Made by a program: the position numbers and the translations under genes. From assembly GCA_000434535.1 (NCBI GenBank), contig FR878731.1:1-62308 (forward strand): 62,308 nt of DNA. Reading direction: 5' to 3'. Position 1 is the first letter of the stretch, and each line of letters starts with the position of its first letter. Below, in pieces: positions 44,790 to 61,901 of the stretch. The notes below the pieces were generated by a model. That model saw nothing but the letters and a program-made list of their open reading frames with translations. It had not been told where the DNA came from and searched no databases. Origin of the DNA: Collinsella sp. CAG:166 (GTDB lineage: Bacteria > Actinomycetota > Coriobacteriia > Coriobacteriales > Coriobacteriaceae).

Positions 44790-44822
44790 CCGACAAGCAG
44801 CGTCACCGCCCCCGCAGCTAAC
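44759..44822 (+). repeat. 32-bp tandem duplication of the PIN gene 3' end
   Basis: CGACAAGCTCCGCCACCGCCCCCGCAGCTAAC / CGACAAGCAGCGTCACCGCCCCCGCAGCTAAC. Confidence 0.8.
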
Positions 44823-44836
44823 AACCATCCCCTCCT

Positions 44837-44905
44837 AAGTTGCGGTGAAATAGTTCCTATTTTTTGCCTTCTGACGGCCATTTAGGAACTATTTCACCGC
44901 AACTT
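44837..44905. repeat. Palindromic repeat family A, copy 4
   Basis: AAGTTGCGGTGAAATAGTTCCTA...TAGGAACTATTTCACCGCAACTT. Confidence 0.9.
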
Positions 44906-45088
44906 TTTGTAAGGGCAGATTTCAACACCGCTGAAAGGCCCCTGACAACCGTTTACCGATATCTTTTGGTCGGGTCTAACCTTCTGAGCTGCGGCGTCAA
45001 GCTTTTGGTCAGCTCATGGCAAGGTTCAGCGAAATCAATATGCGATAGCGTGGTATCGTTCGCTCATCCTCGAGACATGGGGTCGCTA

Positions 45089-46084
45089 ATGGGTAAGGCC
45101 GATCACTGTTCCAAATCTCAGACAAGGCTTTTCTTCTCGGTATTCGAGGCCCATCATGACGGACGCTTGTTTATTGCCACCGAAAAATGGGACGAACGTT
45201 GTGCCTACTCGCTCATGCAAAAGCAAATGATCGTTCGACTCTATAACCACGTCTATGCCGACCCTGCATACTGGAATGACCTTGGTATAGAAGACCGCAT
45301 TTTTCAGCTGGCATCCGCCATTGCGGTCGTTGAACCCGAAGCGGTATTTTGTGGGGCGACCGCGGCTCTGCTCTATGGTATCGGTTCGGCACACACACTT
45401 CTCGATAAGGTACAAGTTCTGTTGCCGCGAGCCACCAGGCGCGATACGTACGAATTCGTTGAGTATCGTCGCTGGCGGGCGGGCGAAGTGTGGCAGCTCG
45501 GTCCGTTTACGTTGACAGATCCGTACCGCACGGTGGTCGATATCGCCCGAACGAGCGCTTTTCGATATGCGCTGGGCTATGTCGATGGCCTGGCTCGTGA
45601 GTATGATGTCGAGCGCGAAGAGTTGCGCGCGTATGCACAGGCCAATTGCCGTGGGCTGCACGGCATCGCACGTGCGTTTGACGTTTTTGAGCACATGGAC
45701 GGCAGGTCAGACAACGGCGGTGAATCTGAGGCAAGGGCAGCGATGATCCTCGCTGGAGTAGCCACTCCCGAACTTCAGGTTGAAATCACTCGGCCGGGAA
45801 ATGCAGGCTATTATTTGGCAGATTACGGCTGGCAGATGCCAAACGGCTCTTGGATGCTGGCTGAGCTGCATGGACTAGGCAAGTTTGAGGACGATGCCCA
45901 AAATGATCCGGAACATACTGCGGCAAAAACCTATCGAGCTGCCCTCATGCGCGACGCGAACCTGCGTGCCATGGGCCACAACGTCATTCATTTCAAGCTC
46001 TCAGACACCCACGATGTCAAAGCGTTCGGCTCCATGATGCGCAGCTACGGTATACCAACCACAAAACCCTACGCAGACTCCTGA
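45089..46084 (+). CDS. AbiEi-like/DUF559-like protein with putative C-terminal PD-(D/E)XK-type domain (start uncertain, 45077 or 45089)
   Basis: VFCGATAALLYG, TDPYRTVVDIAR, SDNGGESEARAAM..PELQVEI, ADYGW..AELHGLGKF; more AT-rich than neighbours. Confidence 0.6.
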   Translation: MGKADHCSKSQTRLFFSVFEAHHDGRLFIATEKWDERCAYSLMQKQMIVRLYNHVYADPAYWNDLGIEDRIFQLASAIAVVEPEAVFCGATAALLYGIGSAHTLLDKVQVLLPRATRRDTYEFVEYRRWRAGEVWQLGPFTLTDPYRTVVDIARTSAFRYALGYVDGLAREYDVEREELRAYAQANCRGLHGIARAFDVFEHMDGRSDNGGESEARAAMILAGVATPELQVEITRPGNAGYYLADYGWQMPNGSWMLAELHGLGKFEDDAQNDPEHTAAKTYRAALMRDANLRAMGHNVIHFKLSDTHDVKAFGSMMRSYGIPTTKPYADS

Positions 46085-46145
46085 CCGGCTGCCCTCATCT
46101 TCTCGACAACAGAACCCATCATCGACCCAACCCGCTCGGCCTCAA

Positions 46146-46216
46146 TAAGTTGCGGTGAAATAGTTCCTAGATAACAGCTTTTGCGGCTTATCCAGGAACT
46201 ATTTCACCACAACTTA
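46146..46216. repeat. Palindromic repeat family A, copy 5
   Basis: TAAGTTGCGGTGAAATAGTTCCT...AGGAACTATTTCACCACAACTTA. Confidence 0.9.
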
Positions 46217-46296
46217 GAAGGGGATGTGGGGTCCCCGGCATGTAAATGAAAACGGCTCTGGCACCAAATAGAGCCAAAGCCGTTAAAACTATCTTA

Positions 46297-46370
46297 TGGA
46301 GCGGGCGACGGGAATCGAACCCGCGTCATCAGCTTGGAAGGCTGGGGTTCTACCATTGAACTACGCCCGC
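46297..46370 (-). tRNA. tRNA-Gly(TCC)
   Basis: GCGGGCGTAGTTCAATGGTAGAACCCCAGCCTTCCAAGCTG...GGTTCGATTCC...TCCA. Confidence 0.95.
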
Positions 46371-46376
46371 AAGATA

Positions 46377-46453
46377 TGGTCGGGACGACAGGATTTGAAC
46401 CTGCGACATCCTGCTCCCAAAGCAGGCGCGCTACCAAACTGCGCCACGTCCCG
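46377..46453 (-). tRNA. tRNA-Pro(TGG)
   Basis: CGGGACGTGGCGCAGTTTGGTAGCGCGCCTGCTTTGGGAGCAGG...GGTTCAAATCC...ACCA. Confidence 0.95.
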
Positions 46454-46544
46454 AAGGTGTTGAGCAGCTAAGGTCTAAACCTTGCGTGTCCCAAAGCGAA
46501 GGAAATTATAGGGGAGACTCCCCGCCTGTGCAAGCATTGATGCC

Positions 46545-47903
46545 TTAGCTCCTCGAATGTGCGACAAAACGACTATGGAGCAGACCGATCACAAAGGCAA
46601 CCACGGCAACCGGCGCCCACGCGGCTCCAATGTCCGCAAGCGGCAGCACATCGAACGGCAGCCACGCACCCGCAAAGAACGCATCGCGGACCGAGGTGAT
46701 CACACTCTGCACAGCAACCACGCCGCCGACCCACACCCACACCTGCGGATGAGCGTCGCAAAAGCCGTGCACCAGGCCCATCAGTACCAGTACGATGGCA
46801 ACGGGATACAAGGCGTTGAGCATAGGCACCGAGAACATAAGAATCACGTCGAGGCCCACGTTGGAGAGCACGCACGAAAACGCCGCGAACACAAAGGCGA
46901 GAATCGCAAAGGGGCGGCGCATGGCCTCCTCGGAAACATCCGCTCCCCCTTCGACCACATACGTCTCGCAGAAGTAACGCGAGCAGCAGCTGATGAGGCC
47001 GATGCACACGTTCATGCAGGCAAGGAAAAAGATCGCAAAGACCACGACCGTGCCGGCAAGCCCAAAATGCATGGAGGCCGAACGGGCAAGGATTGCGGCG
47101 CCGTTGGTAGCGTCGGGCATCACGGTGCCGAGCTGCATACCGGCAAGGCCCAAGCCGCAGTAGATGATGGCCATGAGCACGCCGGCGATCACACCGGAAC
47201 GCGAAATCTCGAAGGCCACGCGCTTGTCATCGGTAACACCCAACTCGTGGATAGTCTCGGCGATGATGATGCCGAAGGCGAGCGACGCGAGCAGGTCCAT
47301 GGTCTGATAGCCAGTCAGAAAGCCCTGCACGGCGGCGCCTGCATCGTAAGGAGCCTGAGGCGCAGCAGCCGGTCCCAGCGGCGAGATCACGGCAGCACCC
47401 ACGACCAGCACAATGAGTGCAATGAGTGCGGGGCCCGTAATGCGGCCGAGTACGCGTGTGATGACACCCGGGCGCAGCGTGAGCGCAAACGCGACGACAA
47501 AGAAGCCAACGGCAAACACCAGGCGAGCCGTACCGAGCGAGACGCCCTCGGGCAGCAGCGGCACCAGCATCTCGAAGGCCGTGGAGCTCGTGCGCGGAAT
47601 AGCCAGACACGGGCCGATGGCCAGATACACCGCCGCGACAAAGAACTCACCGAACTTGGGGTGCACGCGGCCGGCAAGCTCGCGCGCCGTTCCGGCGAGC
47701 GCCACGGCGATAAAGCCCATGACGGGCAGACCGATAGCGGCAATCAAAAAGCCAATCATGGCAAGCGGCGTGGCCGTGCCGGCCTGAAGTGCCAGCAACG
47801 GCGGAATGATGAGGTTACCGGCACCAAAGAGCATCGAGAACAGCGCAATGCCGACGGTAACGACATGGTCGGAGCGCAAACCGCGCGGGGCGGATGAGGC
47901 CAT
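46545..47903 (-). CDS. brnQ: Branched-chain amino acid:cation symporter
   Basis: LFSMLFGAGNLIIPP, GPCLAIPRT, GYQTMDLLASLAFG. Confidence 0.9.
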   Translation of the reverse strand: MASSAPRGLRSDHVVTVGIALFSMLFGAGNLIIPPLLALQAGTATPLAMIGFLIAAIGLPVMGFIAVALAGTARELAGRVHPKFGEFFVAAVYLAIGPCLAIPRTSSTAFEMLVPLLPEGVSLGTARLVFAVGFFVVAFALTLRPGVITRVLGRITGPALIALIVLVVGAAVISPLGPAAAPQAPYDAGAAVQGFLTGYQTMDLLASLAFGIIIAETIHELGVTDDKRVAFEISRSGVIAGVLMAIIYCGLGLAGMQLGTVMPDATNGAAILARSASMHFGLAGTVVVFAIFFLACMNVCIGLISCCSRYFCETYVVEGGADVSEEAMRRPFAILAFVFAAFSCVLSNVGLDVILMFSVPMLNALYPVAIVLVLMGLVHGFCDAHPQVWVWVGGVVAVQSVITSVRDAFFAGAWLPFDVLPLADIGAAWAPVAVVAFVIGLLHSRFVAHSRS

Positions 47904-47924
47904 AGGCACACCTTTCGGGTCGAA

Positions 47925-47957
47925 ACAAAAACGGGACGGGCAAAAGACCCGTCCCGC
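47925..47957 (-). terminator. Terminator ending the selenium operon
   Basis: Minus strand CGGGACGGG-TCTTTTG-CCCGTCCCG-TTTTTGTTT. Confidence 0.75.
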
Positions 47958-47970
47958 AAGTATATACGCT

Positions 47971-49110
47971 CTAGCAGGCTAAATCGCGCAAAGCGTCAAT
48001 CGCGGTGTCGACTTCCTCGGCCGTGTTGAAATACCCAAACGAGAAGCGAACGATACCCTGGCGCTCGGTCCCGAGCGCGCGGTGCATGAGCGGAGCGCAA
48101 TGGGCACCGGGGCGCGTCGCAATCCCCCACCCTTGCATAAGCGCGTCCGAGATCTCGGCAGAGTCGATATCGCCCACGTTGAGTGAGACGATCGCCGAGC
48201 GCACAGGCTGATCAAACGCACCGTAGAGCGCAATGCCGGGGATTTCGCGAACGCCGGCGAGGAAGCGCTCGGCAAGCGCGCGCTCATGCGCCGCAATCGC
48301 CTCGACCCCGCCCTGGGCCTCGATAAAGTCGAGACCTGCGGAAAGTCCCGCGATGCCGTGACCGTTGAGCGTGCCCGCCTCAAGGCGCGTGGGCCACTCA
48401 AGCGGCTGCAGTGCATCGAAGCTGTGCACGCCCGTGCCGCCAATGGCCCACGGAGCCACGTCAACGCCCTCCGCCACGGCCAGGCCGCCGGTGCCCTGTG
48501 GACCCATGAGCCCCTTGTGGCCGGTAAAGCACACGACGTCGAGGCCCATAGCCTGCATATCGACATACATCGCGCCGGCAGACTGCGAAGCATCGACGAT
48601 CACGAGGGCGCCGGCCGCATGCGCGATGGCAGCCACGCGCGCAACGTCAACGGCATTGCCGGTCACATTGGAGGCGTGCGTCACCACCACGGCACGCGTG
48701 CCCGGCGTGACCAACCGCTCGAGCTCGTCGTAGTCGAGCGCGCCGTTCGCGTCGCAGCCCGCATGCTCAACGGTCACACCCCGCTCAGCCGCAAGACGAT
48801 TAAGCGGACGCAGCACTGAGTTGTGCTCAAGCACCGTCGTGACCACGCGGTCGCCGGGACGCACCACGCCGTTGATGGCGGTGTTGAGCGCCGCCGTCGA
48901 GTTAGGTGCAAAGCACACATGGTCGGCGCGCGGGCATCCCAGCAGGCGCGCAAGCTTGGCGCGGCAACCATGAATCGTACGCGCGGCATCGAGCGCACCC
49001 GAGGTGGCACCGCGCCCGGCATTGCCGAGCGAGCACATCGCCTGCGTCACGGCATCGATGACCGTCTGCGGCTTGCGCATGGTCGTCGCCGCGTTATCCA
49101 GGTAGATCAT
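47971..49110 (-). CDS. Class V PLP enzyme, cysteine desulfurase/selenocysteine lyase family (group II-like)
   Basis: IYLDNAATT, EHNSV, DASQ, TGHKGL, RPGAHCA. Confidence 0.88.
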   Translation of the reverse strand: MIYLDNAATTMRKPQTVIDAVTQAMCSLGNAGRGATSGALDAARTIHGCRAKLARLLGCPRADHVCFAPNSTAALNTAINGVVRPGDRVVTTVLEHNSVLRPLNRLAAERGVTVEHAGCDANGALDYDELERLVTPGTRAVVVTHASNVTGNAVDVARVAAIAHAAGALVIVDASQSAGAMYVDMQAMGLDVVCFTGHKGLMGPQGTGGLAVAEGVDVAPWAIGGTGVHSFDALQPLEWPTRLEAGTLNGHGIAGLSAGLDFIEAQGGVEAIAAHERALAERFLAGVREIPGIALYGAFDQPVRSAIVSLNVGDIDSAEISDALMQGWGIATRPGAHCAPLMHRALGTERQGIVRFSFGYFNTAEEVDTAIDALRDLAC

Positions 49111-49358
49111 CGCACGACCTCCCACATATCAATCACGGTATAGCCCTCTGTGGGAACGCCCGCCGCGGCGAGTTCGCCGCGCAGCAGCTCCTCATCGGCA
49201 GGCAACGCCTTCCACGCCAAACCGCAGCCGGCAGCGACCTCCCCGGGCACGGGTATCGTTCGCCCGGGAAGGCCGCGCTCGATACACAGGGACTCGCAGC
49301 CCATGGCGGCCGCCGTGGTGGGAAACGTGATGACAAGCGCCGGGCGCTTCTCCCTCAT
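49107..49358 (-). CDS. DUF3343 putative Se/S carrier protein
   Basis: ITFPTTAAAM...GRTIPVPGEVAAGCGLAW. Confidence 0.78.
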   Translation of the reverse strand: MREKRPALVITFPTTAAAMGCESLCIERGLPGRTIPVPGEVAAGCGLAWKALPADEELLRGELAAAGVPTEGYTVIDMWEVVR

Positions 49359-49377
49359 GGCAACTCCAACCAATACG

Positions 49378-50004
49378 CTACGGGCGCACGACGCGCACGG
49401 CCTGCTCCATCTTCTCCACGATCACGTACATGTTGGTGACCTCGCCCACCGCAAGCTGGTCTTTAATGCCATAGTGGTCGAGGCAGGTGCCGCAGGTGAG
49501 AATCTCGACACCCTGCTCCGCCAGGCCCTTCAGGTCGTCGAGCACCGGAGACCCCTCGACGGTGAGCTTGGCGCCGCCGTTGTAGAACAGCATGGTCGCG
49601 GGCAGTTCCTCCTGCTGCGTCACGGCAAAGATAAACGCCTTCATGAGCTTGTGGCCCAGCTCGTCGTCGCCACGGCCCATGCAATCGGTGTAGACGGAAA
49701 TGACGAGTTTGCCCTTGCCGGCGCTGGCGTCGCAGAAGGCAGCGCCATCCTGCTCAGGATCGGCCACGGCAACGGCGCCAGAGGTCGCCACGGTCACGTG
49801 CCACTCGGCGTCAGAAACCTTCTCTACCGAGGCCGTGCAGCCCTTCTCCTGCGCCATCTTGGAGATGTTCTTGACGGCAGTCTCGTTATCGACCGAGGTC
49901 ACCACGGCACCCTCGCCATCGAGCCGCTTCAGGGCTTTGAGCGTCTTGACGACGGGCAGCGGGCAGGCATCGCCCATGGCATTGACTTCAATTTTGGTAG
50001 ACAT
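49378..50004 (-). CDS. yedF: Sulfurtransferase-like selenium metabolism protein YedF (TusA + DsrE domains)
   Basis: GDACPLPVVKT TusA motif; MGRGDDELG, FYNGG, CGTCL. Confidence 0.82.
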   Translation of the reverse strand: MSTKIEVNAMGDACPLPVVKTLKALKRLDGEGAVVTSVDNETAVKNISKMAQEKGCTASVEKVSDAEWHVTVATSGAVAVADPEQDGAAFCDASAGKGKLVISVYTDCMGRGDDELGHKLMKAFIFAVTQQEELPATMLFYNGGAKLTVEGSPVLDDLKGLAEQGVEILTCGTCLDHYGIKDQLAVGEVTNMYVIVEKMEQAVRVVRP

Positions 50005-50064
50005 AGTTTTTCCTTTCGAAAGAACCGTTCTAGAGAACGGTAAACAGTTACATAAACGTGCGGG

Positions 50065-51114
50065 CTAGCGAACAACGTGGACGGCAGGACCGCCTGGCAC
50101 CGGCTCGCACACGCGACCGACGACGGCGGCAATACGTCCTTCGGCATGCAGACGGCGCGCAAGCTCATCCACATCGGCAGCAGGTGCCGCGATGAGCAGG
50201 CCACCAGACGTCTGCGGATCGTACAGCGCATCCAACATGCCCGGCTCCAGGTCTTCGTCGGCAGCCACGCGCGGGCCAAAGAAGTCCTGGTTGCGGTAGG
50301 AGCCCGCGGGGATAATGCCCAGACGCGCCATGTCGAGCACCTGGTCAAAGAGTGGAACCGCCCCCGACGCAAGCTCAACCTGCACGCCCGAGCCCTCGGC
50401 CATCTCGCACGCATGCCCGATCAGACCAAAGCCCGTAATGTCAGTACAGCCGTGAAGCTCGAGTCCCTCGGCCAGACGAATCGGAGCCTCGTTGAGAGTG
50501 CGCATCGAGTCAAACATGGCTGCGGCCTCGTCCTGCTCGATAAGCTCGCCCTTAATGGCCGTGGTGATGATGCCCGAGCCGATCGCCTTGGTCAGCAGCA
50601 GAACATCGCCCACGTGTGCGCCGCTGTTGGCGAGCATGCGGTCGAGTGGCACAAAACCGCTCACGGACAGGCCGTACTTGGGCTCGTCGTCGTTGATGGT
50701 GTGGCCGCCCGCGATGGAGCAACCCGCCTCGACGCACTTGTCGGCGCCGCCCGCCAGAATCTGACCGGCGACCTCGATGCCCAGGCAGCTCGGGATGCAC
50801 AGCAAGTTCATGGCATGGCTCGGCCGCCCGCCCATGGCGTAGATGTCCGACAGCGAGTTGGCCGCGGCGATCTGGCCAAACAGGAACGGGTCGTCGACCA
50901 TCGGCGGGAAGAAGTCGATGGACTGCACGAGACCAAGGTTCTCCCCTACGCGGAAGACGCTCGCATCGTCGGAGGTATCGAACCCCACGAGCAAGTTGTC
51001 GTTATGCACATTGGGTAAATCGCCCAGGACCTGGGCGAGGGCTCCGGGGGCCAACTTAGCGGCTCAACCGCTCGCGGCCGTCATGGACGTGAGCCTCATG
51101 GTGTCCTTAGCCAT
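50065..51114 (-). CDS. selD: Selenophosphate synthetase, selenoprotein (UGA = Sec17), 349 aa
   Basis: MAKDTMRLTSMTAASG-TGA(51064-66)-AAKLAPG in frame; DDASV, DFFPP, AANSLSDIYAMGG, TDITGFGL, DPQTSGGLL. Confidence 0.95.
51020..51038 (-). promoter_or_regulatory. Candidate SECIS of selD
   Basis: TCGCCCAG-GTC-CTGGGCGA hairpin 25 nt after UGA. Confidence 0.55.
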
Positions 51115-52324
51115 ACGAACCCCCTTCCAACAAATTAACGACTTTAAGTATACGCCCCAGGCACGCTTCCCAAGAGACCGCCGACGGCTCGAACGTCGAA
51201 GGCGGAGCCGCAAGCGCCTGCGCGATAGCATCTGCCAGTGCGCGCTCAAACAACGGAAGGTCGGCCGCCACGGGCGTGTCGACATCCGTCATACGCGGCG
51301 ACGCCACCCACGTCACGGGAGCACCGGGAAGCATCGCCTCCATCCAGGGACGAACGCCGGGCAAATCGGTCGCCACAACTTTGCAGCCGCACGCGAGGGC
51401 CTCGATCGTCACGAGCGGCAAACCTTCGTAAAACGAAGGCAGCACAAAGACGTCGGAACTGCGGTAGGCACGCACGAGTTCATCGCTATCCAGGCGCCCC
51501 GCCAGCGTCACCGGCACATCCGAGGCCGCGGTCAAGCGCTCGATACGCGCGTACTCGGCATCGTCCCCGCGGCCGCCCACAAGTACCAAGCCAGATGAGC
51601 GGACGCCATCGTCAATCGGCAATGACACAGCTCGAACCAGCGACTCGACGCCCTTTTTAAAGCAAATCTTGCCCACGTACACAAGCGATCCCGGCTGCCT
51701 CGCCACGCTTGCGTCGCGGCAGAAGACGCGATGGTCGTAGCCCGTCCCAATCACGTGGATGCGATCGGCATCGACGCCGCACACCAGGCCAATCTGCTCA
51801 GCCTGCTCAGCGTGGAGCGCAAAGACGGCATCGAGCCGACGAACCGCACTTACGATGCGATCGCGCTCGAGCGCATGCGAACGCAGCTGGCGCAGGTCGG
51901 TCGAATGGCACACGGCAACAACCGGCACGCCCCGGACGCACTCGCGCGCCAATGCGGTCACAAGATACAGGTGATGGCAGAGCACCAGATCGGGCCGAAA
52001 CTCAGCCACCGCCCGATCGATTGCAGCAGCAAATGCCCGCTCAAATGCCTTGAGCATCGAAGGCGTCAGGTCACGATAGCGCGTGGAGGGATAGGGCATG
52101 ACATCGGACATACCGCAGATGGGAAACGGCAGCTCGGGCGACTCGAACGGTACGGCAAACACGGCAGCACGCCGGTCCAGCTCGCCTTGGGTATCACCCG
52201 GTGCCGCGCCGCAAAGCACGGCGGCGCGATGCCCCGTCTCGATCTGTTCGCGTACGAGCGCGGCAAGGTAGGTGCCGCTGCCGGTGCTATCTGGTTTTTG
52301 CGCCGAGATATTGAGGATGCGCAT
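51107..52324 (-). CDS. GT-B/family 4 glycosyltransferase
   Basis: MRILNISAQKPDSTGSG, YVGKICFKKG, FVLPSFYEGLPLVTIEALACG (EX7E); overlaps selD start. Confidence 0.85.
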   Translation of the reverse strand: MRILNISAQKPDSTGSGTYLAALVREQIETGHRAAVLCGAAPGDTQGELDRRAAVFAVPFESPELPFPICGMSDVMPYPSTRYRDLTPSMLKAFERAFAAAIDRAVAEFRPDLVLCHHLYLVTALARECVRGVPVVAVCHSTDLRQLRSHALERDRIVSAVRRLDAVFALHAEQAEQIGLVCGVDADRIHVIGTGYDHRVFCRDASVARQPGSLVYVGKICFKKGVESLVRAVSLPIDDGVRSSGLVLVGGRGDDAEYARIERLTAASDVPVTLAGRLDSDELVRAYRSSDVFVLPSFYEGLPLVTIEALACGCKVVATDLPGVRPWMEAMLPGAPVTWVASPRMTDVDTPVAADLPLFERALADAIAQALAAPPSTFEPSAVSWEACLGRILKVVNLLEGGSYG

Positions 52325-52338
52325 GTCGCGGTACACCC

Positions 52339-53103
52339 CTAGGCCAAGGCGGCGGCGCGGACAGCCGCGCCGATCGCTCCGGCAAAGCGAGCTTGGGGCG
52401 AGGTGGTCACCGGCGACCCCAGTAGCTCGCCCAACCGCTCCACCACGAAGGCGTTCTCGCACAGGCCACCGGTCAGGTAGTACGGGGCGCCCGCGGCCTG
52501 CCCGGCCATGGTCGCCACGCGCGATACGACACTCTCAATCACACCACGGGCGATGTTCTCGCGCGGCTCACCACGGCCGATCAGGCTGATGACCTCGCTT
52601 TCGGCAAACACCGTGCACATGCTGGAAATCTTGGTAGGCTCGCCGGTGCGGGCGAGGTCTGCCATCTGCTGCTGGGTAATGCCCAGGCGGTCGGCCATGA
52701 TCTCCAAAAAGCGCCCCGTGCCGGCGGCGCACTTGTCGTTCATGGCAAATTTGGCCACGCGGCCGCCTTTAAGCTGGATGACCTTGGTGTCCTGACCACC
52801 CACATCGATCACGGTGCCATGGTCACCAAACAGACGCACGGCACCGGTGCCGTGGCAGGTGATCTCGGTCACGACCTTGTGCGCATAGGGCACGGCAACA
52901 CGGCCGTAGCCAGTCGCGACCACGCGAACATCGTCGCCCGTCACGTCGTAGCCGGCCGCTGCCAGTGCCTCGCGCAGCCGCTCGGAAGCATCGACCGAGG
53001 AAAACCCGGTTGGCTGCACGCACGTCCACGCCACCGAACCCTCCCCGTCGACCACAGCAGCCTTAGCCGCCGTAGACCCGATATCGATCCCGATCCCTAT
53101 CAT
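52339..53103 (-). CDS. ASKHA ATPase electron-transfer activator (HgdC/BadF-type; DCCP reductase-like)
   Basis: GIDIGST, ATGYGR, TEITCH, DVGGQDTK, MNDKCAAGTG, CTVFAESE. Confidence 0.9.
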   Translation of the reverse strand: MIGIGIDIGSTAAKAAVVDGEGSVAWTCVQPTGFSSVDASERLREALAAAGYDVTGDDVRVVATGYGRVAVPYAHKVVTEITCHGTGAVRLFGDHGTVIDVGGQDTKVIQLKGGRVAKFAMNDKCAAGTGRFLEIMADRLGITQQQMADLARTGEPTKISSMCTVFAESEVISLIGRGEPRENIARGVIESVVSRVATMAGQAAGAPYYLTGGLCENAFVVERLGELLGSPVTTSPQARFAGAIGAAVRAAALA

Positions 53104-53155
53104 GGCTCTCTCCCAATCTAAACATCAAAGGTAGCGGCGCGTTCAGGCGCCTTAG

Positions 53156-53265
53156 CTCTAGGTTTCTCAGGTGCCGGAGATTGCCCCGAAAGAGGAGCGC
53201 AGCGTACTTTGGGTACGCAAGCGACGGTTTGAGGGGCAAGATCCGGTGCCTGAGGAAGCTAGAGG
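53156..53265. repeat. Palindromic element family D, copy 1
   Basis: CTCTAGGTTTCTCAGGTGCCGGA...GAGGAGCGCAGCGTACTTTGGGTACG...TCCGGTGCCTGAGGAAGCTAGAG. Confidence 0.7.
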
Positions 53266-54422
53266 GTTTCGATGAAGGCGGCGATGCGCGTCTCGATCTG
53301 GCCCATGTCGCCGTTGCTGTAGTCGGTCTCGATCTTCATGTACGGAACACCCGCACCCTCGACGGCCTCCTGCATGCGCGCGCTCTCAACGTTGAAGGTG
53401 TGGCAGGCCTGCAGCACGCTCTCCACTACGCCATCGACGTGATACTTCTCGCACATGACCAGCGTGTTTTCCATACGACCGTCGTTGGGCGTCATGACCG
53501 AGCAGTTAATGTCCAGGTAGCGGTCGGCGATGGCGCGCAGGATGTCGGGAGCCTCCGGGTCGATCATCATGGCCGCCGTGCGCTCGCCCGAGCAGTCGTC
53601 CATGCACACGACCACACCGCCGTTGGACTCGATGGTGCGACCGATCTTGTTGATTACACCGCCCACCGGGCAGCCGGTGATCAGAATGCGCTTGGCATCC
53701 GCCGCAACCGGGCGCTCGCCCGCGTCGTAGGCCTCGCGCAGCTTGGCAACCTTTTGCTCCAGCTGCTGCGTATAGGCCTCGATATCAAAGCTAAACGTAC
53801 CGGCGAACATGGTGCTCATCAGGTCGACGCCGCTCATGGCCGCCGGTTGGTTAGCCTGCAGCGCAAACATCTCGAGCTGGGCGGCACGCAGGCGGTTGCG
53901 ACGACGAACGGCAGCGCGCAGGTCGTCATCGGTAATCGTGATGCCGTAGAAGTTCTCGAGCTCCTCCTTGAGCAGGCGGCACTCCTCGTACCAGCCTTCA
54001 CGCTCGTAGGCGCGATCGCGACCCTGCGGCAGGTGCAGAATGTGCGTGCGCTTGAGCTCGTTGAGTAACTCGTACATCTTCTTCTTGCCGTCGCAGGTGG
54101 TCTCGCCGATGATCATGTCGCTAAAGTACGTAAACGGGCACTTTTGCGAGTAGGCAAAGCCGTACGTCGACTTGATGAGCGGGCAGAGGTTTGCCGGCAG
54201 CACCTTCTCGGCCTCGGGAATCACCTCGTCGGATGTGCCGCACAAGGCCACACTTGCAGCGCCCGCGGCATCGATAATCTCGAGCGGCGTGTAGCTGCAC
54301 AGAAAACCGATCAGGCGATTACCGGCCTGCTTGTAATCCTTGACGCGAATAAACGACGCCTTGCGCTGCTCGTTGAACTCCTCAAACGTGGACGGCAACG
54401 GCTGCTCAATATATTCCGACAT
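53259..54422 (-). CDS. 2-hydroxyacyl-CoA dehydratase family / double-cubane cluster protein (paralog 2)
   Basis: [53 protein letters not shown]. Confidence 0.82.
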
Positions 54423-54459
54423 ATAACTCCTTAACAAACCTTTTAACCAACCAAGGAAA

Positions 54460-54546
54460 CGGCTTTCCCAGGTGCCCGAGGTTGCCGTGAAAGAGAAGCG
54501 CCGCGTACTTTGTTGAACGGCAAGATCGGGTGCCTGGGGAAGCCGC
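54460..54546. repeat. Palindromic element family D, copy 2
   Basis: CGGCTTTCCCAGGTGCCCGA...GAGAAGCGCCGCGTACTTTG...TCGGGTGCCTGGGGAAGCCG. Confidence 0.7.
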
Positions 54547-54560
54547 CGGGACGGATACCC

Positions 54561-55844
54561 CTAAATGGTTTCTAAGAACGCCTCAATGCGCGTCTGCAGC
54601 TGGCCTGCGTCCTCGCCGGCGTAGTCGGTGGTGATATGCATAAACGGGATGCCCGCCTCCTCAGCGGCCTTCTCGACCTGGAAGGACTCCATCTCATAGA
54701 GCGTGCAGAACTGCAGGGCCACGTCGACGATGCCATCGGCATGCAGGTCCTTGGCCATCTGGACAATGTCCTTCATACGCTGGTCGTTGGGCGTAAAGAC
54801 GGCGCAGTTGATCTTGAAGTAGCGCTCGGCGATGTCGTCGAGCATCTCGTCGACCGTCTCGCCGGACTCGTCGACCAGGTCCTTGTAGTAGCGCGAGCCC
54901 GTGCAGGACTCCTCGCCGACCACAACGCCGCCGGCCTTCTCGATGAGGTTGAACAGCTTCCAGTTGGGCACGGCCATGGGCGTGCCGGTGTACAGGATGC
55001 GCTTGGTCCCCTTGGGCGCCACGCCCTCGCCGGCCTCGACACGCTGCTCGCACTCAGCCGCCATATCGTTGATGGCTCCGGTCAGACGCGGCGTGTCGTC
55101 CATAAAGGCGGCCTGAACGGTCAGCAGGCTGTCGAGACCGCTGATGGGCGCAGGGTCGGCAGCGCGGGTCGCAGCGAGGCGCTGCAGGGCGCGGCGCTTC
55201 TCATTGACGGCGTGGATGGCAGCCTTCAGACGCTCGGGCGTAATCTTGACGCCGCACTCGTCCTCGATCTTGGCGGCGAGCTTCTTGACCTCGGCCTTCC
55301 AGGTCACGAGCGTCGACTCGTCGTGCACGTTGGGAATATCCATGACGTACATGTTCTTTTGCGTGGCAAAGAACTCGTAGGCTTTCTTCTTGCCATCGCA
55401 GGTGTTCTCGCCTACCACCAGGTCACTCGACTCAATGTAGGGGCAGACCTCGCCCAGCTTAAAGCCGGCAAAGCTCTTGATAAGCGGACAGGTGTTGCGC
55501 GGCAGATGCTCCTCGACCTTATCGGTTGCCCAATCGGCACCCGAGCACAGACCCACGGGGATACCGTCGCAGGCGAGAACAATCTCCTCGGGCACGTAGA
55601 CGCAGAAGCTGCCAACAATCTTGGTGGCCTCGCCGGCCTCCTTCTTGTCGAGCATCTCCTTAATGCGGCCGCTGTGGATGTTGGTGGCGACAAAATCCAG
55701 GTAGGACGTGGACTTGGGGCGATTGTTCTGCGTCAGGAACATATCGCCGTACATCTGGCCCACGGCACCCAGCAGCATGTCGTGGTCGGCAAGATTCATG
55801 CCGAGGCTCTCCCACATCGGATGGAAATCGAATTCTTCAGCCAT
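54561..55844 (-). CDS. Double-cubane cluster-containing reductase-like protein (paralog 1)
   Basis: SFCVYVPEE, GLCSG, NTCPLIKS, VCPY, ENTCDGKKK, EESCTG, INCAVFTPN, QFCT. Confidence 0.82.
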   Translation of the reverse strand: MAEEFDFHPMWESLGMNLADHDMLLGAVGQMYGDMFLTQNNRPKSTSYLDFVATNIHSGRIKEMLDKKEAGEATKIVGSFCVYVPEEIVLACDGIPVGLCSGADWATDKVEEHLPRNTCPLIKSFAGFKLGEVCPYIESSDLVVGENTCDGKKKAYEFFATQKNMYVMDIPNVHDESTLVTWKAEVKKLAAKIEDECGVKITPERLKAAIHAVNEKRRALQRLAATRAADPAPISGLDSLLTVQAAFMDDTPRLTGAINDMAAECEQRVEAGEGVAPKGTKRILYTGTPMAVPNWKLFNLIEKAGGVVVGEESCTGSRYYKDLVDESGETVDEMLDDIAERYFKINCAVFTPNDQRMKDIVQMAKDLHADGIVDVALQFCTLYEMESFQVEKAAEEAGIPFMHITTDYAGEDAGQLQTRIEAFLETI

Positions 55845-55961
55845 AACGGTTCCCCTCTCGAACCAAAAATGAGTAGCTACGGTATTGCTGCACGGTGGGT
55901 GGCGAAAACCCAGCCGCGCCTAAACCCGGAATTTTGGGGAACCTGCTTTGCGGTCGATTAT

Positions 55962-56072
55962 TTAGTTGTGCGTCGTCTCTCCCGGAGCCGTGAACATACC
56001 TGCTCATATGCGACTCCGAGCCATATACAGGGCGCGCGCGGCAACGCGGCGAATGTATGTCGTCTGCGGCAT
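55962..56072 (-). CDS. Putative leader peptide with in-frame UGA (22 aa if stop, 36 aa if Sec)
   Basis: AAAGGAGG RBS (56081-56088), ATG 56072, MPQTTYIRRVAARALYMARSRI-TGA(56004-06)-AGMFTAPGETTHN-TAA. Confidence 0.5.
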
Positions 56073-56274
56073 GTGCGCACCCTCCTTTACAAGATAAGAT
56101 CAACTATATCAACGGTCATCGACCATGCGAACACCGTTGACATTCGTACGACAGCATCGTGTGCCGTCGTTTAATAAACAATTCTCTTGATTGATAAGAG
56201 TTTGTCATCTCTCATTCGGCGAACGGCAGAAACAAAGCCGCCGAGGCTTATATCCCCGACGGCATTACCCGGCG

Positions 56275-57345
56275 CTATCGACAAACCAAATGGATCCTGC
56301 TGGCATCGAAGTGCATGCGCAGCGTCTCGCCTGCTTGCGGTAGCTCGTCGACAGGCACGCCCACCTTGTTGACCTTCCACTGCAGACGCGTGGGCGCATC
56401 AGCGCGCGGCACGTCCAGCAGCACCAGCCGCTCAAAGCGCGAATCGCTCACACGGGCCACATGCAAATCGTAGCTGTTACGGCCCCGCTCAACGCGATTA
56501 TCAATATGGAAATAGCTTGCGCGAACGCCCAGGTACGCCACATTATCGGGGACCTCGCGGCCCACGTTAAAGGTCATGCCCCAGTCGAGGGCCTCAACTT
56601 CTTCGTCGCCGATTTTGCGCGCACGGCTTGTGTTCTTGCAGCCAGTTAGGCGCAGCGCCGCCAGCGTCTGCGGACGGCGGACCACGTCCTCGACGGAGCC
56701 GAGCTCCTCAACATGCCCGTCGTGCATCACACAGATGCGCTGGCACAGGCGGCATGCCTCGTCGATGTCGTGGCTCACGTAGAGCACGGTGCGGTTGCAG
56801 ACATCGAACAGGTCGAGCATATTCTGCTCGAGGGCGCTCTTGAGGTACGCATCGAGCGCACTCATGGGCTCGTCGAACATAAAAATGCCCGGATGCGCCG
56901 CCACCATGCGGGCAAGCGCCACGCGTTGTTGCTGGCCGCCCGAGAGCCGCGCGGGATAACGGTCGGCGAAATCGGCCAGGCCAAAGATGCCCAGATAGCG
57001 CTCGGCCAGCCTTTTTCGCGCCGCGGCGTCGCCCGCGTCCTTTACACCGGCACATACGTTATCGGCCACCGTCATGCTGGGAAACAGCTGATAGTTTTGG
57101 AACAGCAGGGCGCATTTTCGCTCCTGGGGCGACAGGTTGATGCCCGCCGCCGAGTCAAAAAAGGTCACGCCGTTGACGACGATCTTGCCCTCGTCGGGCG
57201 TCTCCACGCCGGCGATGCAGCGCAGCGTACAGCTCTTGCCGCAACCCGAGGCACCGAGCAGCGCCACACGATCCTCGCCGGCCTCAAGCTGCATGTCGAG
57301 CATAAACCCGGGATAGCGCTTTTTGATATCCAGAACGAGCGACAT
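56275..57345 (-). CDS. modC: Molybdate ABC transporter ATPase
   Basis: GASGCGKS, LSGGQQQRVALAR, DEPMSALD, VSHD. Confidence 0.88.
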   Translation of the reverse strand: MSLVLDIKKRYPGFMLDMQLEAGEDRVALLGASGCGKSCTLRCIAGVETPDEGKIVVNGVTFFDSAAGINLSPQERKCALLFQNYQLFPSMTVADNVCAGVKDAGDAAARKRLAERYLGIFGLADFADRYPARLSGGQQQRVALARMVAAHPGIFMFDEPMSALDAYLKSALEQNMLDLFDVCNRTVLYVSHDIDEACRLCQRICVMHDGHVEELGSVEDVVRRPQTLAALRLTGCKNTSRARKIGDEEVEALDWGMTFNVGREVPDNVAYLGVRASYFHIDNRVERGRNSYDLHVARVSDSRFERLVLLDVPRADAPTRLQWKVNKVGVPVDELPQAGETLRMHFDASRIHLVCR

Positions 57346-57348
57346 GGC

Positions 57349-58791
57349 CTATCGACCTCCCTGCAAAGCGGCATCATCGCGCATGAGCTCGGCCAGCGCC
57401 TCGCGATCGATACGCAAGGCATCGCCGCCCGCCGGGTCGAGCGAATCGCCCTGTCCGGCAAGATCTTTGATCCGCTTGCGCTCCGCACGGGAAAGGCCCC
57501 GCTCGCGATACTTTTGCGAATGCGCCGTGTACATGTTGATGAATAGGATGACCAGGAAACTGAACGCAATCACAACGGCGACCCAAAAGAGGGCCACCGA
57601 CGTATTGCCGCCCATCCACTCAAAGTAAATCGCAATGGGAATGGTCTGCGTAATGCCGGCATAGTTGCCCGCAAAGAACAGCGTGCAGCCAAACTCTCCC
57701 ATCGCGCGGGCAAAGGCGAGGACCGTACCAGCGGCAATAGAAGGCCACCCAAGCGGCATCATAAGCTTGGCAAAGATGCGACGCTCGGACCATCCCAGGG
57801 TTCGCGCGGCGTCAAGCATCTGCGTGTCGAGGCTCTCAAAGGCGCCGAGCGCCGTACGGTAGACCAGGGGGAACGATACCACCACGGCAGAGATCACCGC
57901 CGCCGGCCACGTAAAGACAATCGAGACGCCGTGCGCAATCAGCCACTGGCCCACCCCGGTCGAGCGACCAAACAGCATAAGCAGCAAAAAGCCGCAGACC
58001 GTGGGCGGCAACACCATGGGGATGGTAAAGACCGAGTCGAGCAGGCCCTTGATGCGACTCGAGGTACCCATAGTCTTCCACGCGGCGAACAGGCCCAGCG
58101 CAAGGGAGATCACCAGGGCAAGGCCGCTCGTTTTAATGGACACCCAAAACGGGCGATAGTCGATGTCGCCCAAAAAGGAGACCAGAGAGGTCAAGGGCCC
58201 TTGCTCATCCCGCAACATGACAGACGACGCCTCTACCATTTGAGCGCTATCAAGCCAACGCGCGCCGCCCTTGGCATCACCCGAGGCTGATGCAATCACC
58301 ACATAGCGGTCCCCATCCGCACCGCGCTCGTCAAAGCCATAGGTATACCCACCGGCATCAAACGTTGTTTCCGCCGTGACATACCAAGGAAGATTCACGT
58401 CCCCTAGCTGCGCACCTCCCATGCAGTTTGCGCTGTCGAGCTTACAGACGAGGGCCTTGAGACCCGATACGCACTCGTTATCCTGCGGATCCAACCCATA
58501 CTTCTCGACCGCCTTGGGCGACATCCACACCACAACGCGATCGGCAGCAGGTGCCACTACAAGGTCCACGTCCTCGTCAACGGGAAACCGATAGCCCTCA
58601 GGCTGGCCCTCCATGGCACGAGCGGTCCCCTTGGCCAACCGCTCAAAACCCTCGATCCCATAGGAAAGCCCATGGGCGGTCGCAGCAACCTGGGCCCCGT
58701 CCTCAGCGTCCCCAGCAAACGCAAATCCCGGCACCCAGCAAAGCGCGAAGGTCAAAGCACAGGCGACAAGCATGCGGAATCTATTAAGCAC
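57349..58791 (-). CDS. modB: Molybdate ABC permease with ~220-aa N-terminal extracytoplasmic extension
   Basis: PMVLPPTVCG, AARTLG (EAA loop), FARAMGEFG; signal-like N-terminus; start uncertain (58791/58773). Confidence 0.82.
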   Translation of the reverse strand: MLNRFRMLVACALTFALCWVPGFAFAGDAEDGAQVAATAHGLSYGIEGFERLAKGTARAMEGQPEGYRFPVDEDVDLVVAPAADRVVVWMSPKAVEKYGLDPQDNECVSGLKALVCKLDSANCMGGAQLGDVNLPWYVTAETTFDAGGYTYGFDERGADGDRYVVIASASGDAKGGARWLDSAQMVEASSVMLRDEQGPLTSLVSFLGDIDYRPFWVSIKTSGLALVISLALGLFAAWKTMGTSSRIKGLLDSVFTIPMVLPPTVCGFLLLMLFGRSTGVGQWLIAHGVSIVFTWPAAVISAVVVSFPLVYRTALGAFESLDTQMLDAARTLGWSERRIFAKLMMPLGWPSIAAGTVLAFARAMGEFGCTLFFAGNYAGITQTIPIAIYFEWMGGNTSVALFWVAVVIAFSFLVILFINMYTAHSQKYRERGLSRAERKRIKDLAGQGDSLDPAGGDALRIDREALAELMRDDAALQGGR

Positions 58792-58859
58792 GAAAAGCTC
58801 CAAGCGAATACAAGGACGGAGTGAAACACAAAACGATGGAATTATCGCGCCAAGCCGCA

Positions 58860-59735
58860 CTACTCGGAAAGCTCAAAGCCGTACTTAGCCCAAATCTTCT
58901 GGGCCTTCTTGTTGGTCAGACAGAAGTCGATGAACGCCTTGGCCTCGTCGGCGTGCTCGGAGCTCTCGGCAACGGCACCCGGGTACACGATGGGTTTGTG
59001 CGAATCCTCGGGGCACACGAAGGCCTCCTCGATGCCGTCGTAGCGGAAAATGTCGGAGCTGTAGACAAAACCCGCCACGCAGTCGCCTGTAGAGACGTAA
59101 GACGCAGCGGTGCCGACCTTGTCGGCCAGGGCTACCTTGTCGGCGAGCTCGGGCGCGTACTCGCCGTCGTCGCCCTCGGTACCGGTATAGAGGCCCACGG
59201 AAGCCAGCGCCTGGTTGGCGTACTTGCCGGCGGGGACGGTCTTGGCGTCGCCGATGGCAATCTTACCGTCCAGATTCGCGACGTCGGCGATGGCCTCGAC
59301 CTTAGTATCGGAGCCCTCGGCGCGAATGATCACGAGGTCGTTGACGAACATGTCCTCACGCGTGTCGGCATCGACGAGCTCGGCGGCTTCGGCGTCGTCC
59401 ATGGTGCCCTTGGAGGCCGTGATGAGCACGTCGACGGCGGCACCGGCGCGCATCTGCTCGACAAGGTCGCCAGACGCCTTAAACTGCGTGTCGGCAAACG
59501 TGGTGCCGGTCTGCTCGGTGTAGAGCTCCTGAACCTCGGGCAGAGCTTTCTCGAGCGAGTTAGCAGCAAAGACCTGCAACTCGACAGCCTTCTTCTTAGA
59601 GGAAGACTTGACGGAGCCGGCATCGGAACCAGCGGGCTCGGACGTCTTGTTGCCCGAGCAGCCGGCAAGGCCAAGGCCGGCGGCAGCGGCAGCAGAAAGC
59701 GAGACAAAACCGCGGCGTGAAACCATATCGAACAT
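58860..59735 (-). CDS. modA: Molybdate-binding lipoprotein with Tat-like signal
   Basis: SRRGF...LAGC lipobox; VFAANSL, ASGDL, VPAGKYA, FVYSSD, PIVYP. Confidence 0.9.
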   Translation of the reverse strand: MFDMVSRRGFVSLSAAAAAGLGLAGCSGNKTSEPAGSDAGSVKSSSKKKAVELQVFAANSLEKALPEVQELYTEQTGTTFADTQFKASGDLVEQMRAGAAVDVLITASKGTMDDAEAAELVDADTREDMFVNDLVIIRAEGSDTKVEAIADVANLDGKIAIGDAKTVPAGKYANQALASVGLYTGTEGDDGEYAPELADKVALADKVGTAASYVSTGDCVAGFVYSSDIFRYDGIEEAFVCPEDSHKPIVYPGAVAESSEHADEAKAFIDFCLTNKKAQKIWAKYGFELSE

Positions 59736-59938
59736 ATTCAACCCTTTCGAACGCTATGCCCGGGCACCCCGCCGCAGGCTTTATTCTGTTACTAGATTAT
59801 ACTTTCGCGCGAATAATGATAATGAGAAATTATTCTCGCTAGAGAATATAGTTTCGAGTTGCCGTGCACCTCGGCGTCGCTTCGGCGGAAAACAAAGGCG
59901 GAGCAGCCGTTCAGGTCGCCCCGCCGCAGGTAAACCGC

Positions 59939-60418: not shown

Positions 60419-60428
60419 AGTCTTCCTC

Positions 60429-61691
60429 CTACAACACCGTGCCCTCGGGCAGGTCGACACGCACGACATCCACGACGTCGCCCGCCTTGAGCTCGCACGG
60501 TCCTTCGTCAATACGCAGCAGGCAGTTGGACCGCTGCATCGTGCCGAGCAGCGCCGAATTCTGCGTCTTGGCCTCGGTCACCAACAGCTCACTGGTCTCG
60601 GGGTCGCGCAAAACCGTGGCGCGATCGAAGAAGCGTCGGTCCTGGCGCTTTTTCACGCCGTGCGTGAGCGTCGCCTGCTGCACGGGACGCACGCCCTCGG
60701 CAAAGCCGCGCATCTTGCGAATCGCCGGACGGGCGAGCATCTCAAAGCCCACATACGCCGCGGCCGGATTGCCTGAAAGCCCTAGGTAGGGCTTGCCCCC
60801 GAGCAAGCCAAACGTGATAGCCTTGCCCGGACGCATCGAGATGCGATCGAACAGCACCACGCCCTCGCGCCGGACGAGCGCCGTCACGTAGTCGTAATCG
60901 CCCGCCGAGGCGCCGCCGCTCGTAATGACAAAATCGCACTCTCGCGTGGCGCGATGCACCAGCTCGCCAATCGCCTGCTCATCGTCGGGCGCAATACCGT
61001 AGAACACGGGCTCGGCGCCGGCATCGAGCGCCTCGGCCATCAGCGCCGAGGAGTTGGAATCGCGAATCTGCCCGCGCGCCGGCAGCTCACCCGGCGCGAC
61101 CAGCTCCGTGCCCAGCGAGATAATGCCCACGCGCGGAGCGGCATGGACCTTCACGCTCGCGTAACCGGCGCTTGCCAGCAGGCCGGCGCCGGCCGGAGCC
61201 ACGACCTCGCCGGCATGCATCACAACATCGCCGGCATGGGCCTCCTCGGCGGCAGAGCGAACGTTCTCCCCTACCTTGGCAGGCGCCGAGAAGCGAACGT
61301 GCGAGCCCTCGTTGCCGTCGCCATCGAGTACGTCGACGATCTCGTACTTCACCACGGCATCGGCACCTTCGGGCACCGGCGCGCCCGTCATGATGCGGAC
61401 GGTCTCGCCCGCGCCGATTGTGCCCTCAAAGACATGGCCCGCGGCCTCGTGTCCTACGACGGAGAGCGTCACCGGAGTGTCACCGGCGGCCGCAGCAAGA
61501 TCGGCTGCGCGCACGGCATACCCGTCCATGGCGCTGTTGGCAAACGGCGAGATGTCGATATCGGCCACCGCATCCTCGGCCAAGGGAAGACCGGCGGCCT
61601 GCCACACGGGAATCTCGACGAGATCGGTCGGAACAACGTGCGACAGAACAATCGACTGCGCGTCCTCCAGCGGAATGAGTTTCTCTGCCAT
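60429..61691 (-). CDS. moeA: Molybdopterin molybdenumtransferase
   Basis: FANSAMDGYA, IMTGAPVP, SGGASAGDYD, RPGK, LSGNP. Confidence 0.93.
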   Translation of the reverse strand: MAEKLIPLEDAQSIVLSHVVPTDLVEIPVWQAAGLPLAEDAVADIDISPFANSAMDGYAVRAADLAAAAGDTPVTLSVVGHEAAGHVFEGTIGAGETVRIMTGAPVPEGADAVVKYEIVDVLDGDGNEGSHVRFSAPAKVGENVRSAAEEAHAGDVVMHAGEVVAPAGAGLLASAGYASVKVHAAPRVGIISLGTELVAPGELPARGQIRDSNSSALMAEALDAGAEPVFYGIAPDDEQAIGELVHRATRECDFVITSGGASAGDYDYVTALVRREGVVLFDRISMRPGKAITFGLLGGKPYLGLSGNPAAAYVGFEMLARPAIRKMRGFAEGVRPVQQATLTHGVKKRQDRRFFDRATVLRDPETSELLVTEAKTQNSALLGTMQRSNCLLRIDEGPCELKAGDVVDVVRVDLPEGTVL

Positions 61692-61901
61692 ATGCACCTC
61701 TTAATGCCACGGCGCACAACAGAGGCGCCGATTCTTTATGCTTGTCTCAGTATAATCCCCCGATGCACGGCCGCGACTCGGTCTGTACCCGCAAATACAC
61801 CTGTCGGTTGCAGGCCGCGAAACAGAATGGAAACCAACCCACCGGCTCGTCGCGTTTACCGCGTTTTATAATGCTTGCGTTGCAACCTAAAAGAGGAACG
61901 T

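Follow-up and report, generated by a model that had tools for sequence, protein, structure and literature searches.

A glycosyltransferase gene overlaps the start of selD, the gene for selenophosphate synthetase, in a stretch of 62,308 nucleotides from Collinsella sp. CAG:166 (contig FR878731.1 of assembly GCA_000434535.1, positions 1 to 62,308; this whole stretch is called the window below). The product, here called GT, is a soluble GT-B enzyme of CAZy-type family 4 (GT4) and belongs to an uncharacterised subfamily marked by a GMSDxMPY loop. The Coriobacteriia clade of this subfamily probably works in selenium metabolism in some way, and the conserved gene neighbourhood is stronger evidence for this link than co-occurrence with selD. 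As to the reaction, the explanation preferred here is a tentative one drawn by analogy: GT may be a selenium-linked small-molecule GT4 enzyme that forms a seleno-glycoside from a SelD-supplied selenium nucleophile and a nucleoside diphosphate sugar (NDP-sugar). The two overlapping genes are:

51107..52324, minus strand: GT4-family glycosyltransferase (GT), 405 aa, an uninterrupted open reading frame with Glyco_transf_4 and Glycos_transf_1 domains and a GT-B fold
50065..51114, minus strand: selD, selenophosphate synthetase, 349 aa, selenocysteine (Sec) at residue 17 (TIGR00476, 360 bits against a cut-off of 125)

The neighbourhood of GT with sel genes is retained in differing gene orders in at least ten genera. 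SelD-GT-SelA-SelB-YedF-SclA lie on one strand in three genomes of two genera; another genus has SelA-SelB-GT with selD convergent, and GT is divergent from selA-selB in several genera. Further orders are GT-SclA-YedF and GT-DCCP-DUF3343-...-SclA-YedF (DCCP, double-cubane-cluster protein). A NifS-like desulfurase adjoins GT in genome G043, and SclA lies within 27-74 bp of it in G102, G203 and loci L192, L205 and L242. A metagenome scan seeded with a distant GT member added 80 loci, and dereplication at 95% gave 63 representatives. SelD, SelA, SelB, YedF or DUF3343 is present in the fetched locus of 26 of the 63, and such a gene, or SclA, is located no more than 700 bp from GT in 23; SelD is the next-door gene in 9 and SelA/B in 13. 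In 17 representatives, 5 kb or more on each side of GT is free of sel genes, and in 18 the locus is too short to judge. One of the most distant members, metagenomic L270 (34% identical), has selD directly upstream of GT. These rearranged, conserved neighbourhoods in many genera, together with co-occurrence, support the functional tie to SelD-dependent selenium metabolism that was claimed in an earlier note on this DNA.

The phylogeny of the family points in the same direction. A quick maximum-likelihood search rooted on two paralogs recovers the GT family as one clade (100), with sel-linked members in a basal grade and a 23-row clade. The label 'sel' requires 10 changes on this tree compared with a shuffled mean of 20.6, a value that 0 of 500 shuffles reach. 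It is the conserved neighbourhood, not the overlap itself, that exceeds chance. A related case may already stand in print: the Slackia heliotrinireducens 'glycosyltransferase' Shel_25140 appears, uncommented, in Table 1 of Lin et al. (2015, PMC5322559) as a STRING partner of YedE/YedF. Like GT, it is a glycosyltransferase located by selenium genes, here of the Eggerthellaceae, and it is listed there with HGD-type subunits and an activase; it probably belongs to the GT subfamily.

Co-occurrence was assessed in two draws of Coriobacteriia, consisting of 61 relatives and of 300 genomes of the class. Among the relatives, a full-length ortholog (41-99% identity) occurs in 13 genomes, all 13 of which carry selD; the selD background in this draw is 33/36 congeners and 12/24 genomes of other genera. 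In the larger draw the GT profile matches 37 genomes, all within three families (19/78 plus the window's own genome, 11/33 and 6/28, with 0/161 in the other 28 families), and 34 of the 37 have selD. The pooled draws give 47 GT-bearing genomes, 44 with selD and 3 without. The earlier note had taken frequent orthologs in selD-less genomes as the sign against its proposal; in Coriobacteriia such genomes are these 3 of 47, and GT is decayed in two of the three, being reduced to a C-terminal fragment in G153 and split in two in G179. Outside Collinsella, 14 of 15 intact copies in the two remaining families are in selD-bearing genomes compared with a background of 36/61 (one-sided Fisher p = 0.0014, which overstates significance because the relatives are not independent). 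Locus L048 of the selD-bearing genome G041 reads XdhC-ModABC-MoaA-MoaC-MoeA-like-MogA-like-GT, with YedF nearby. In its congener G153, which has no selD, locus L182 retains the last 140-160 GT codons and has no match to the molybdenum-cofactor queries; G153 looks like a genome that lost the whole Mo/Se trait.

At the junction in the window, the GT stop codon TAA (51109-51107) lies within the start of selD, whose ATG occupies 51114-51112. The overlap reported by the earlier note is thereby confirmed: it comprises 8 nt (ATGGCTAA, 51107..51114, minus strand), read in two different frames. A Shine-Dalgarno-like purine-rich run (GGAAGGGGG, 51128-51120, minus strand) is positioned 5 nt upstream of the selD ATG and falls within the last codons of GT. 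The selD start at 51114 is supported because SelD of the GT-less congener G021 begins at the matching position (MAD...KLTSMTAASGU), where the downstream alternative ATG is missing. The in-frame TGA for U17 of SelD is found at 51066-51064 on the minus strand (context SGUAAK), and its readthrough gives full-length SelD. According to the genome searches, one TGA is carried by most Coriobacteriia selD matches too. For a hairpin like a selenocysteine insertion sequence (SECIS) after this UGA, folding is no more stable than that of shuffles (z 0.14).

The proposal that GT and selD are coupled in one operon is supported. Short overlaps are frequent in bacterial operons. The one seen here recurs in Collinsella loci L183 (GT 66% identical) and L184 (97% identical), and a third Collinsella allele class (G022) has a short gap instead. 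The overlap is not family-wide: outside Collinsella, selD is either on the opposite strand or precedes GT at a distance of 39-122 nt. Complex prediction from alignments for SelD (residues 18-349) with GT returned 0.00 in both runs, which were made without controls, and speaks neither for nor against an interaction. Four RNA runs from three studies (X17, X18, X2 and X11), labelled with this species group, were mapped to 49900-53200; the strains behind all four carry the GT-less allele. In every run the read depth over 51121-52341 is zero, and an RNA contig of X2 joins 51094 to 52364 with 115 other letters in between. The activase gene upstream of GT, selD and yedF are transcribed in these GT-less strains. 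First mates are mostly on the plus strand, which fits minus-strand genes and a standard stranded library.

Within Collinsella the locus is polymorphic. Congeners show three states: ModC-SelD, ModC-DCCP-DCCP-activase-SelD, and the latter plus GT between activase and SelD. Three allele classes of GT (~98%, 72% and 66% identity) occupy one identical site between flanking genes that are 91-99% identical; the near-identical loci belong mostly to C. aerofaciens-like gut isolates and metagenome-assembled genomes. Polymorphic loci include L053 (G021), L054 (G013), L055 (G022), L183 (G187) and L184 (G260), and in some Collinsella genomes a ~5-kb insert with two ABC-ATPase-like genes separates both DCCP genes. 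The 73-nt spacer of the GT-less allele in G021 contains an ATG followed by R-I-L codons resembling the GT start, as well as an 8-mer shared with the 3' end of GT. A deletion scar at this place was considered, but the evidence favours neither insertion nor deletion: the 8-mer match is expected about once by chance, and global alignment is without clear breakpoints. These natural GT-plus and GT-minus strains permit comparison.

The assignment of the protein to GT4 rests on several Pfam matches (PF13439, 67.4 bits against a gathering score of 28.5; PF00534, 64.4 against 26.4; PF13692, 75 against 27). Hallmarks of the GT4 C-terminal domain are an EX7E motif and a G-K/R-x4-K-G phosphate-binding motif. 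The EX7E-type motif of GT is E300...E308 and the phosphate-binding residues are G218, K219, K224 and G225, all of them invariant or nearly so across 44 family members. The family motifs are AQKPDSTGSG, GMSDxMPY, HHLY, HSTDLRQ and VGKIxxKKGV. A subfamily signature (Q9, P11, T14, the loop G71-M72-S73-D74-x-M76-x-Y78, R145, Q146 and Q174) is common to all clades of the subfamily and missing from the paralog outgroup. No model of the NCBIfam scan claims the protein, and a search of the ESM Atlas returns generic GT4 clusters only (Actinomycetota, Bacillota, Thermodesulfobacteriota). Public annotation is the generic 'glycosyltransferase family 4 protein' or, in one source, 'involved in cell wall biosynthesis'. 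A match to GT4-conflict (PF20706, 42.5 bits) was discarded; defence-type neighbours are seen in no locus.

The AlphaFold model of GT (pLDDT 93.3, pTM 0.90) superposes on GlgM, MshA, sucrose-phosphate synthase (SPS), BshA and PimB' with Z values of 31-33 over 330-368 residues. The highest VIA-align values are those of GlgM (33.4), MshA (33.2), an SPS-like protein (33.1) and BshA (32.9), each over ~350 residues; these four are effectively tied as best solved neighbours. The Foldseek top list matches this set, and a profile search of PDB sequences finds GlgM at 4e-23 and SPS at 9e-20. The four enzymes have small acceptors (glucose-1-P, inositol-P, fructose-6-P and malate), and most acceptors of the nearest solved relatives are phosphorylated or anionic. 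Because these relatives use small acceptors, the same is expected of GT: by this analogy its acceptor is most likely a small anionic molecule, not a lipid or polymer, and its donor an NDP-sugar. GlgM and SPS, whose acceptors are phosphorylated, are the best matches in both sequence and structure (SPS Z 32.7-33.1), with 19-23% identity. However, neither enzyme has a genomic context connected with selenium, and genes of the glycogen and sucrose pathways are missing from the surroundings of GT. MshA and BshA (Z 33.2 and 32.9, root-mean-square deviation 3.7 and 3.2 A, 353 and 347 residues) share with GT a D-S/T-G-G-type N-terminal loop and the EX7E motif, and act on small soluble acceptors; they are 17-22% identical to GT, and the GMSDxMPY loop is specific to the GT subfamily.

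The obvious reference is SenB, which the preprint 10.1101/2022.04.13.486033 equates with TIGR04348 and whose gene adjoins senC in that account. In that preprint and in PMC10891094, three types of selenophosphate-using enzyme are described (SelA/SepSecS, SelU and SenB), SenB being presented as the sole known Se-glycosyltransferase. A literature search found GT4 enzymes in sel operons undescribed, with the reservation that the preprint's supplementary list of selD-overlapping families was outside its scope and may include this family. SenB and GT are alike in their GT-B fold and in a gene that is beside or overlapping a selD homolog. In contrast, SenB is encoded in three-gene sen cassettes, whereas GT occurs in selA/selB/yedF/sclA clusters of strict anaerobes, with no SenA/OvsA partner. 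The earlier statement that the window has no SenA-like gene extends to the whole 93.6%-complete assembly, in which the FGE-sulfatase family (PF03781; SenA/EgtB-like) has no match. PF03781 is without a match in G000, G049, G041 and G043, and has one in G039, on a contig other than that of GT.

The suggestion that GT stems from a clade other than SenB agrees with its canonical GT4 relatives and with the profile scores. TIGR04348 does not match the GT protein at E <= 1e-5; in the genome search GT reaches 22.6 bits against a cut-off of 300, with sub-threshold matches in all 14 control genomes as well, and the orthologs in G049 and G043 reach 39.9 bits, below the same cut-off. Four TIGR04348 members from other Actinomycetota comprise 321-365 aa and carry the motif EGGAN(A/S/V); SenB is ~80 residues shorter than the 405-aa GT. 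SenB is absent from the 50 entries listed by Foldseek or VIA-align and from the best 60 of 93 PDB sequence matches. Alignment of 44 GT relatives with the four TIGR04348 members by hhalign (96.9% probability, E 2e-10, 196 columns, 20% identity) indicates that, at the level of sequence profiles, the kinship is real but distant. In this alignment K158 of SenB corresponds to the invariant K224 of GT and T85/D86 to T142/D143 (SenB residues from PMC10891094). In SenB, K158 binds the NDP phosphate and is needed for Se-P cleavage, but the match is non-discriminating because this lysine is general to GT4. Of the selenophosphate pocket of SenB (N20, H58, R61, T83, T85 and R155), T85 aligns with T142, and N20, H58 and R61 fall in the N-terminal part, outside the hhalign alignment.

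In the mechanism proposed for seleno-glycoside formation, GT would be co-transcribed with selD, and the 8-nt overlap would couple translation, keeping GT synthesis in step with that of SelD. A SelD-made selenium nucleophile, most simply selenophosphate, would then attack the anomeric carbon of the NDP-sugar. The resulting seleno-glycoside may serve as a non-toxic selenium store, buffer or carrier. GT would thus be a SenB analogue of separate origin within GT4, found in anaerobes lacking SenA. A bolder version appears doubtful, if possible: the GT4 subfamily as a second Se-glycosyltransferase, independent of SenB, that in gut anaerobes converts selenophosphate from co-translated SelD into a seleno-glycoside, which as a selenium store or carrier would feed the Sec machinery and molybdo-selenoenzymes. 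This product might be the alpha anomer, because the fold is retaining.

Several observations weigh against such a role in selenium metabolism. The co-occurrence of GT with selD is weak when taken alone, because selD is frequent in the class anyway (the selD profile matches 244/300 genomes). The selD-less genome G278 (98% complete, Eggerthellaceae-type) contains a GT that is intact and matches 54 of the 55 signature residues. In Collinsella the gene is accessory and hence dispensable: it is present in 19/71 congeners, always at the selD site, and otherwise near-identical loci occur without it. In the tree, the signature residues are preserved in a sister clade of 29 rows (SH-aLRT 86), which is seldom sel-linked: 2 rows are sel-linked, 2 have DCCP only, 9 lack any sel gene over 5 kb or more to each side, and in 16 the locus is too short to judge. 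Its named members are Lachnospiraceae, and the annotated neighbours are housekeeping genes, as in thyA-folA-GT followed by ilvB/ilvN/ilvE, or metG-GT-traX-tatD. Unlinked loci outside the sister clade are also of the housekeeping kind (engB-GT beside guaB in a metagenomic locus; secDF-GT-ispG-proS in G278). With respect to SenB, the common residues are generic GT4 features; in place of the EGGA(H/N)V motif GT has EGLPLV, and neither T83, which aligns with H140, nor R155, which aligns with C221, is retained. Moreover, GT4 enzymes are retaining and SenB is described as inverting (PMC10891094).

A more general role would suit the housekeeping neighbours found in the Lachnospiraceae clade and in G278. 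GT would then make a non-selenium glycoside (an MshA/BshA-like thiol core, a phospho-sugar or a compatible solute) on which selenium trafficking in Coriobacteriia depends, through selenotrisulfide/perselenide chemistry with SclA, YedF and DUF3343. Such a role also agrees with the high rank of MshA and BshA in the structure and sequence comparisons and with the NifS-like desulfurase or SclA directly beside GT in several loci. However, no deacetylase or cysteine-ligase partner occurs in any annotated neighbourhood, and GT is far below the cut-offs for MshA and BshA (47.4 against 462.5 bits on TIGR03449; 34.5 against 273.7 on TIGR03999). MshC was not found in the genome, where the best match to TIGR03447 (286.3 against 485.1 bits) is CysRS-like and has an internal stop. 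A generally needed metabolite is also hard to reconcile with a gene found in 19 of 71 Collinsella species. Overall, this explanation is rather unlikely, though it is the strongest of those set against a seleno-glycoside.

An ordinary cell-envelope or polysaccharide GT4 enzyme, placed beside selD by a hitch-hiking accident and without any selenium role, would agree with the generic or cell-wall annotation, with the accessory nature of the gene in Collinsella and with the 17 of 63 representatives that are sel-free for at least 5 kb on both sides. Such an accident is difficult to combine with a sel neighbourhood that persists through rearrangement in ten or more genera, or with the decay of GT in two of the three selD-less genomes. 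In addition, no other sugar-pathway, flippase or polymerase gene adjoins GT in the annotated loci, and the acceptors of the closest solved relatives are small soluble molecules. This origin is improbable.

Slightly less probable still is that GT runs toward selenium release. It would then act as a phosphorylase or transglycosylase of the GT4 type, recovering selenium from selenosugars of dietary or host origin and passing selenide to SelD. GT4 does include phosphorylase-like, sugar-1-phosphate-handling enzymes (trehalose phosphorylase, GlgM), and GlgM is the top structural match. The gut habitat is also in favor of salvage, as are the position of GT directly upstream of selD and its clustering with the selenium-supply genes SclA, YedF and DUF3343. 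Nevertheless, no substrate transporter consistently adjoins GT, and we know of no precedent for phosphorolysis of a C-Se bond by a glycosyltransferase. Finally, a true SenB ortholog in a selenoneine or ovoselenol pathway, which the adjacency of GT to selD (as of senB to senC) and the distant profile similarity to TIGR04348 members might suggest, is effectively excluded by family membership (22.6 bits against the cut-off of 300, like the controls), by length (405 against 321-365 aa), by the absence of SenB from the PDB, Foldseek and VIA-align matches listed and by the missing FGE-sulfatase match in the genome.

The genes around GT and selD in the window form a minus-strand row with the transcription order MoeA, a small MogA-like protein, ModA, ModB, ModC, DCCP, DCCP, activase, GT, SelD, YedF and an SclA-like protein:

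60429..61697, minus strand: MoeA-type molybdopterin molybdotransferase, heading the row (Pfam/NCBIfam scan)
56275..59741, minus strand: ModC, ModB and ModA, molybdate ABC transporter, upstream in the row (Pfam/NCBIfam scan)
54561..55844, minus strand: double-cubane-cluster protein 1, HGD-D family (NF040772, 491 bits against a cut-off of 350)
53259..54437, minus strand: double-cubane-cluster protein 2, HGD-D family (NF040772, 494.9 bits against 350)
52339..53103, minus strand: BcrAD/BadFG-type ATPase, the activase (TIGR00241, 233.5 bits against 125.4)
49378..50004, minus strand: YedF-type selenium metabolism protein with TusA and DsrE-like domains (TIGR03527, 213.5 bits against 110)
47971..49125, minus strand: SclA-like class-V aminotransferase of the cysteine desulfurase / selenocysteine lyase type (TIGR01977, 410.9 bits against 377; below the NF040779 (SclA) cut-off, 349.6 against 525 bits)

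The idea that the DCCPs process the product of GT is weakened. The part that stands is their frequent vicinity: 13 of the 63 representatives, spread over both major clades, have DCCP and activase as neighbours of GT. However, four genomes with GT and selD (G041, G073, G102 and G314) have no match to the DCCP model NF040772, which corresponds to 4 of the 14 non-Collinsella genomes with intact GT and selD. The model matches 157/300 genomes of the class, 20/20 GT-bearing Collinsella and 10/17 other GT genomes, and loci L202, L245 and L256 have DCCP/activase beside GT with no sel gene. The DCCPs look like a recurrent component of selenium clusters rather than a dedicated partner of GT. In the window both DCCPs and the activase are located between the molybdate transporter and the selenium genes. 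In several other genera DCCP plus activase recurs beside selD, yedF, sclA and DUF3343 (G049, G183, G125, G203 and metagenome loci). This setting points to a low-potential reductase, driven by ATP, that may take part in the supply of selenium (or Mo/Se).

The activase gene stops 14 nt before GT begins. In six database entries (P0004, P0005, P0009, P0010, P0011 and P0015; 602-669 aa), the activase domain (PF01869) is fused to GT at 96-99% identity; these entries fall into five single-sequence clusters and one two-member cluster. Because only these 14 nt separate the two genes, the fusions are probably frameshift or assembly artefacts; if real, such a fusion would tie GT to the DCCP system.

Further selenium genes are found elsewhere in the window:

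24429-25802, minus strand: selA (TIGR00474, 524 bits), ~25 kb from selD
~40753-42975, minus strand: alpha subunit of a formate-dehydrogenase-type molybdopterin oxidoreductase with an in-frame TGA (CARTUHGP; translation and Pfam scan)

A 655-aa open reading frame directly downstream of selA (22423-24390, minus strand) is probably selB. The Sec-containing formate dehydrogenase is a selenoprotein client of the cluster; its frame upstream of the TGA has a Cys-rich N-terminus typical of an Fe4S4 domain. An open reading frame for a RelB-like antitoxin (43931-44320, plus strand) is situated between the formate dehydrogenase genes and the selenium cluster. An Rfam scan of 44000-62308 finds two tRNAs only, the genes at 46300-46453 (minus strand) downstream of brnQ.

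Compared with SenB, the novelty lies in a selD-coupled glycosyltransferase of another family, in other organisms and in another genomic setting. Accessory yet conserved in the sel clusters of Actinomycetota that abound in the human gut, GT is a candidate for a further step of selenium handling in strict anaerobes, where the O2-dependent SenA is lacking. Should its acceptor not be selenophosphate, it still constitutes a new marker of selenium gene clusters. If the bolder seleno-glycoside reading is true, selenosugars would serve anaerobic selenium metabolism as a general currency and not just as intermediates of selenoneine synthesis, and in the human gut they would have a microbial source or sink in Collinsella and Eggerthellaceae.

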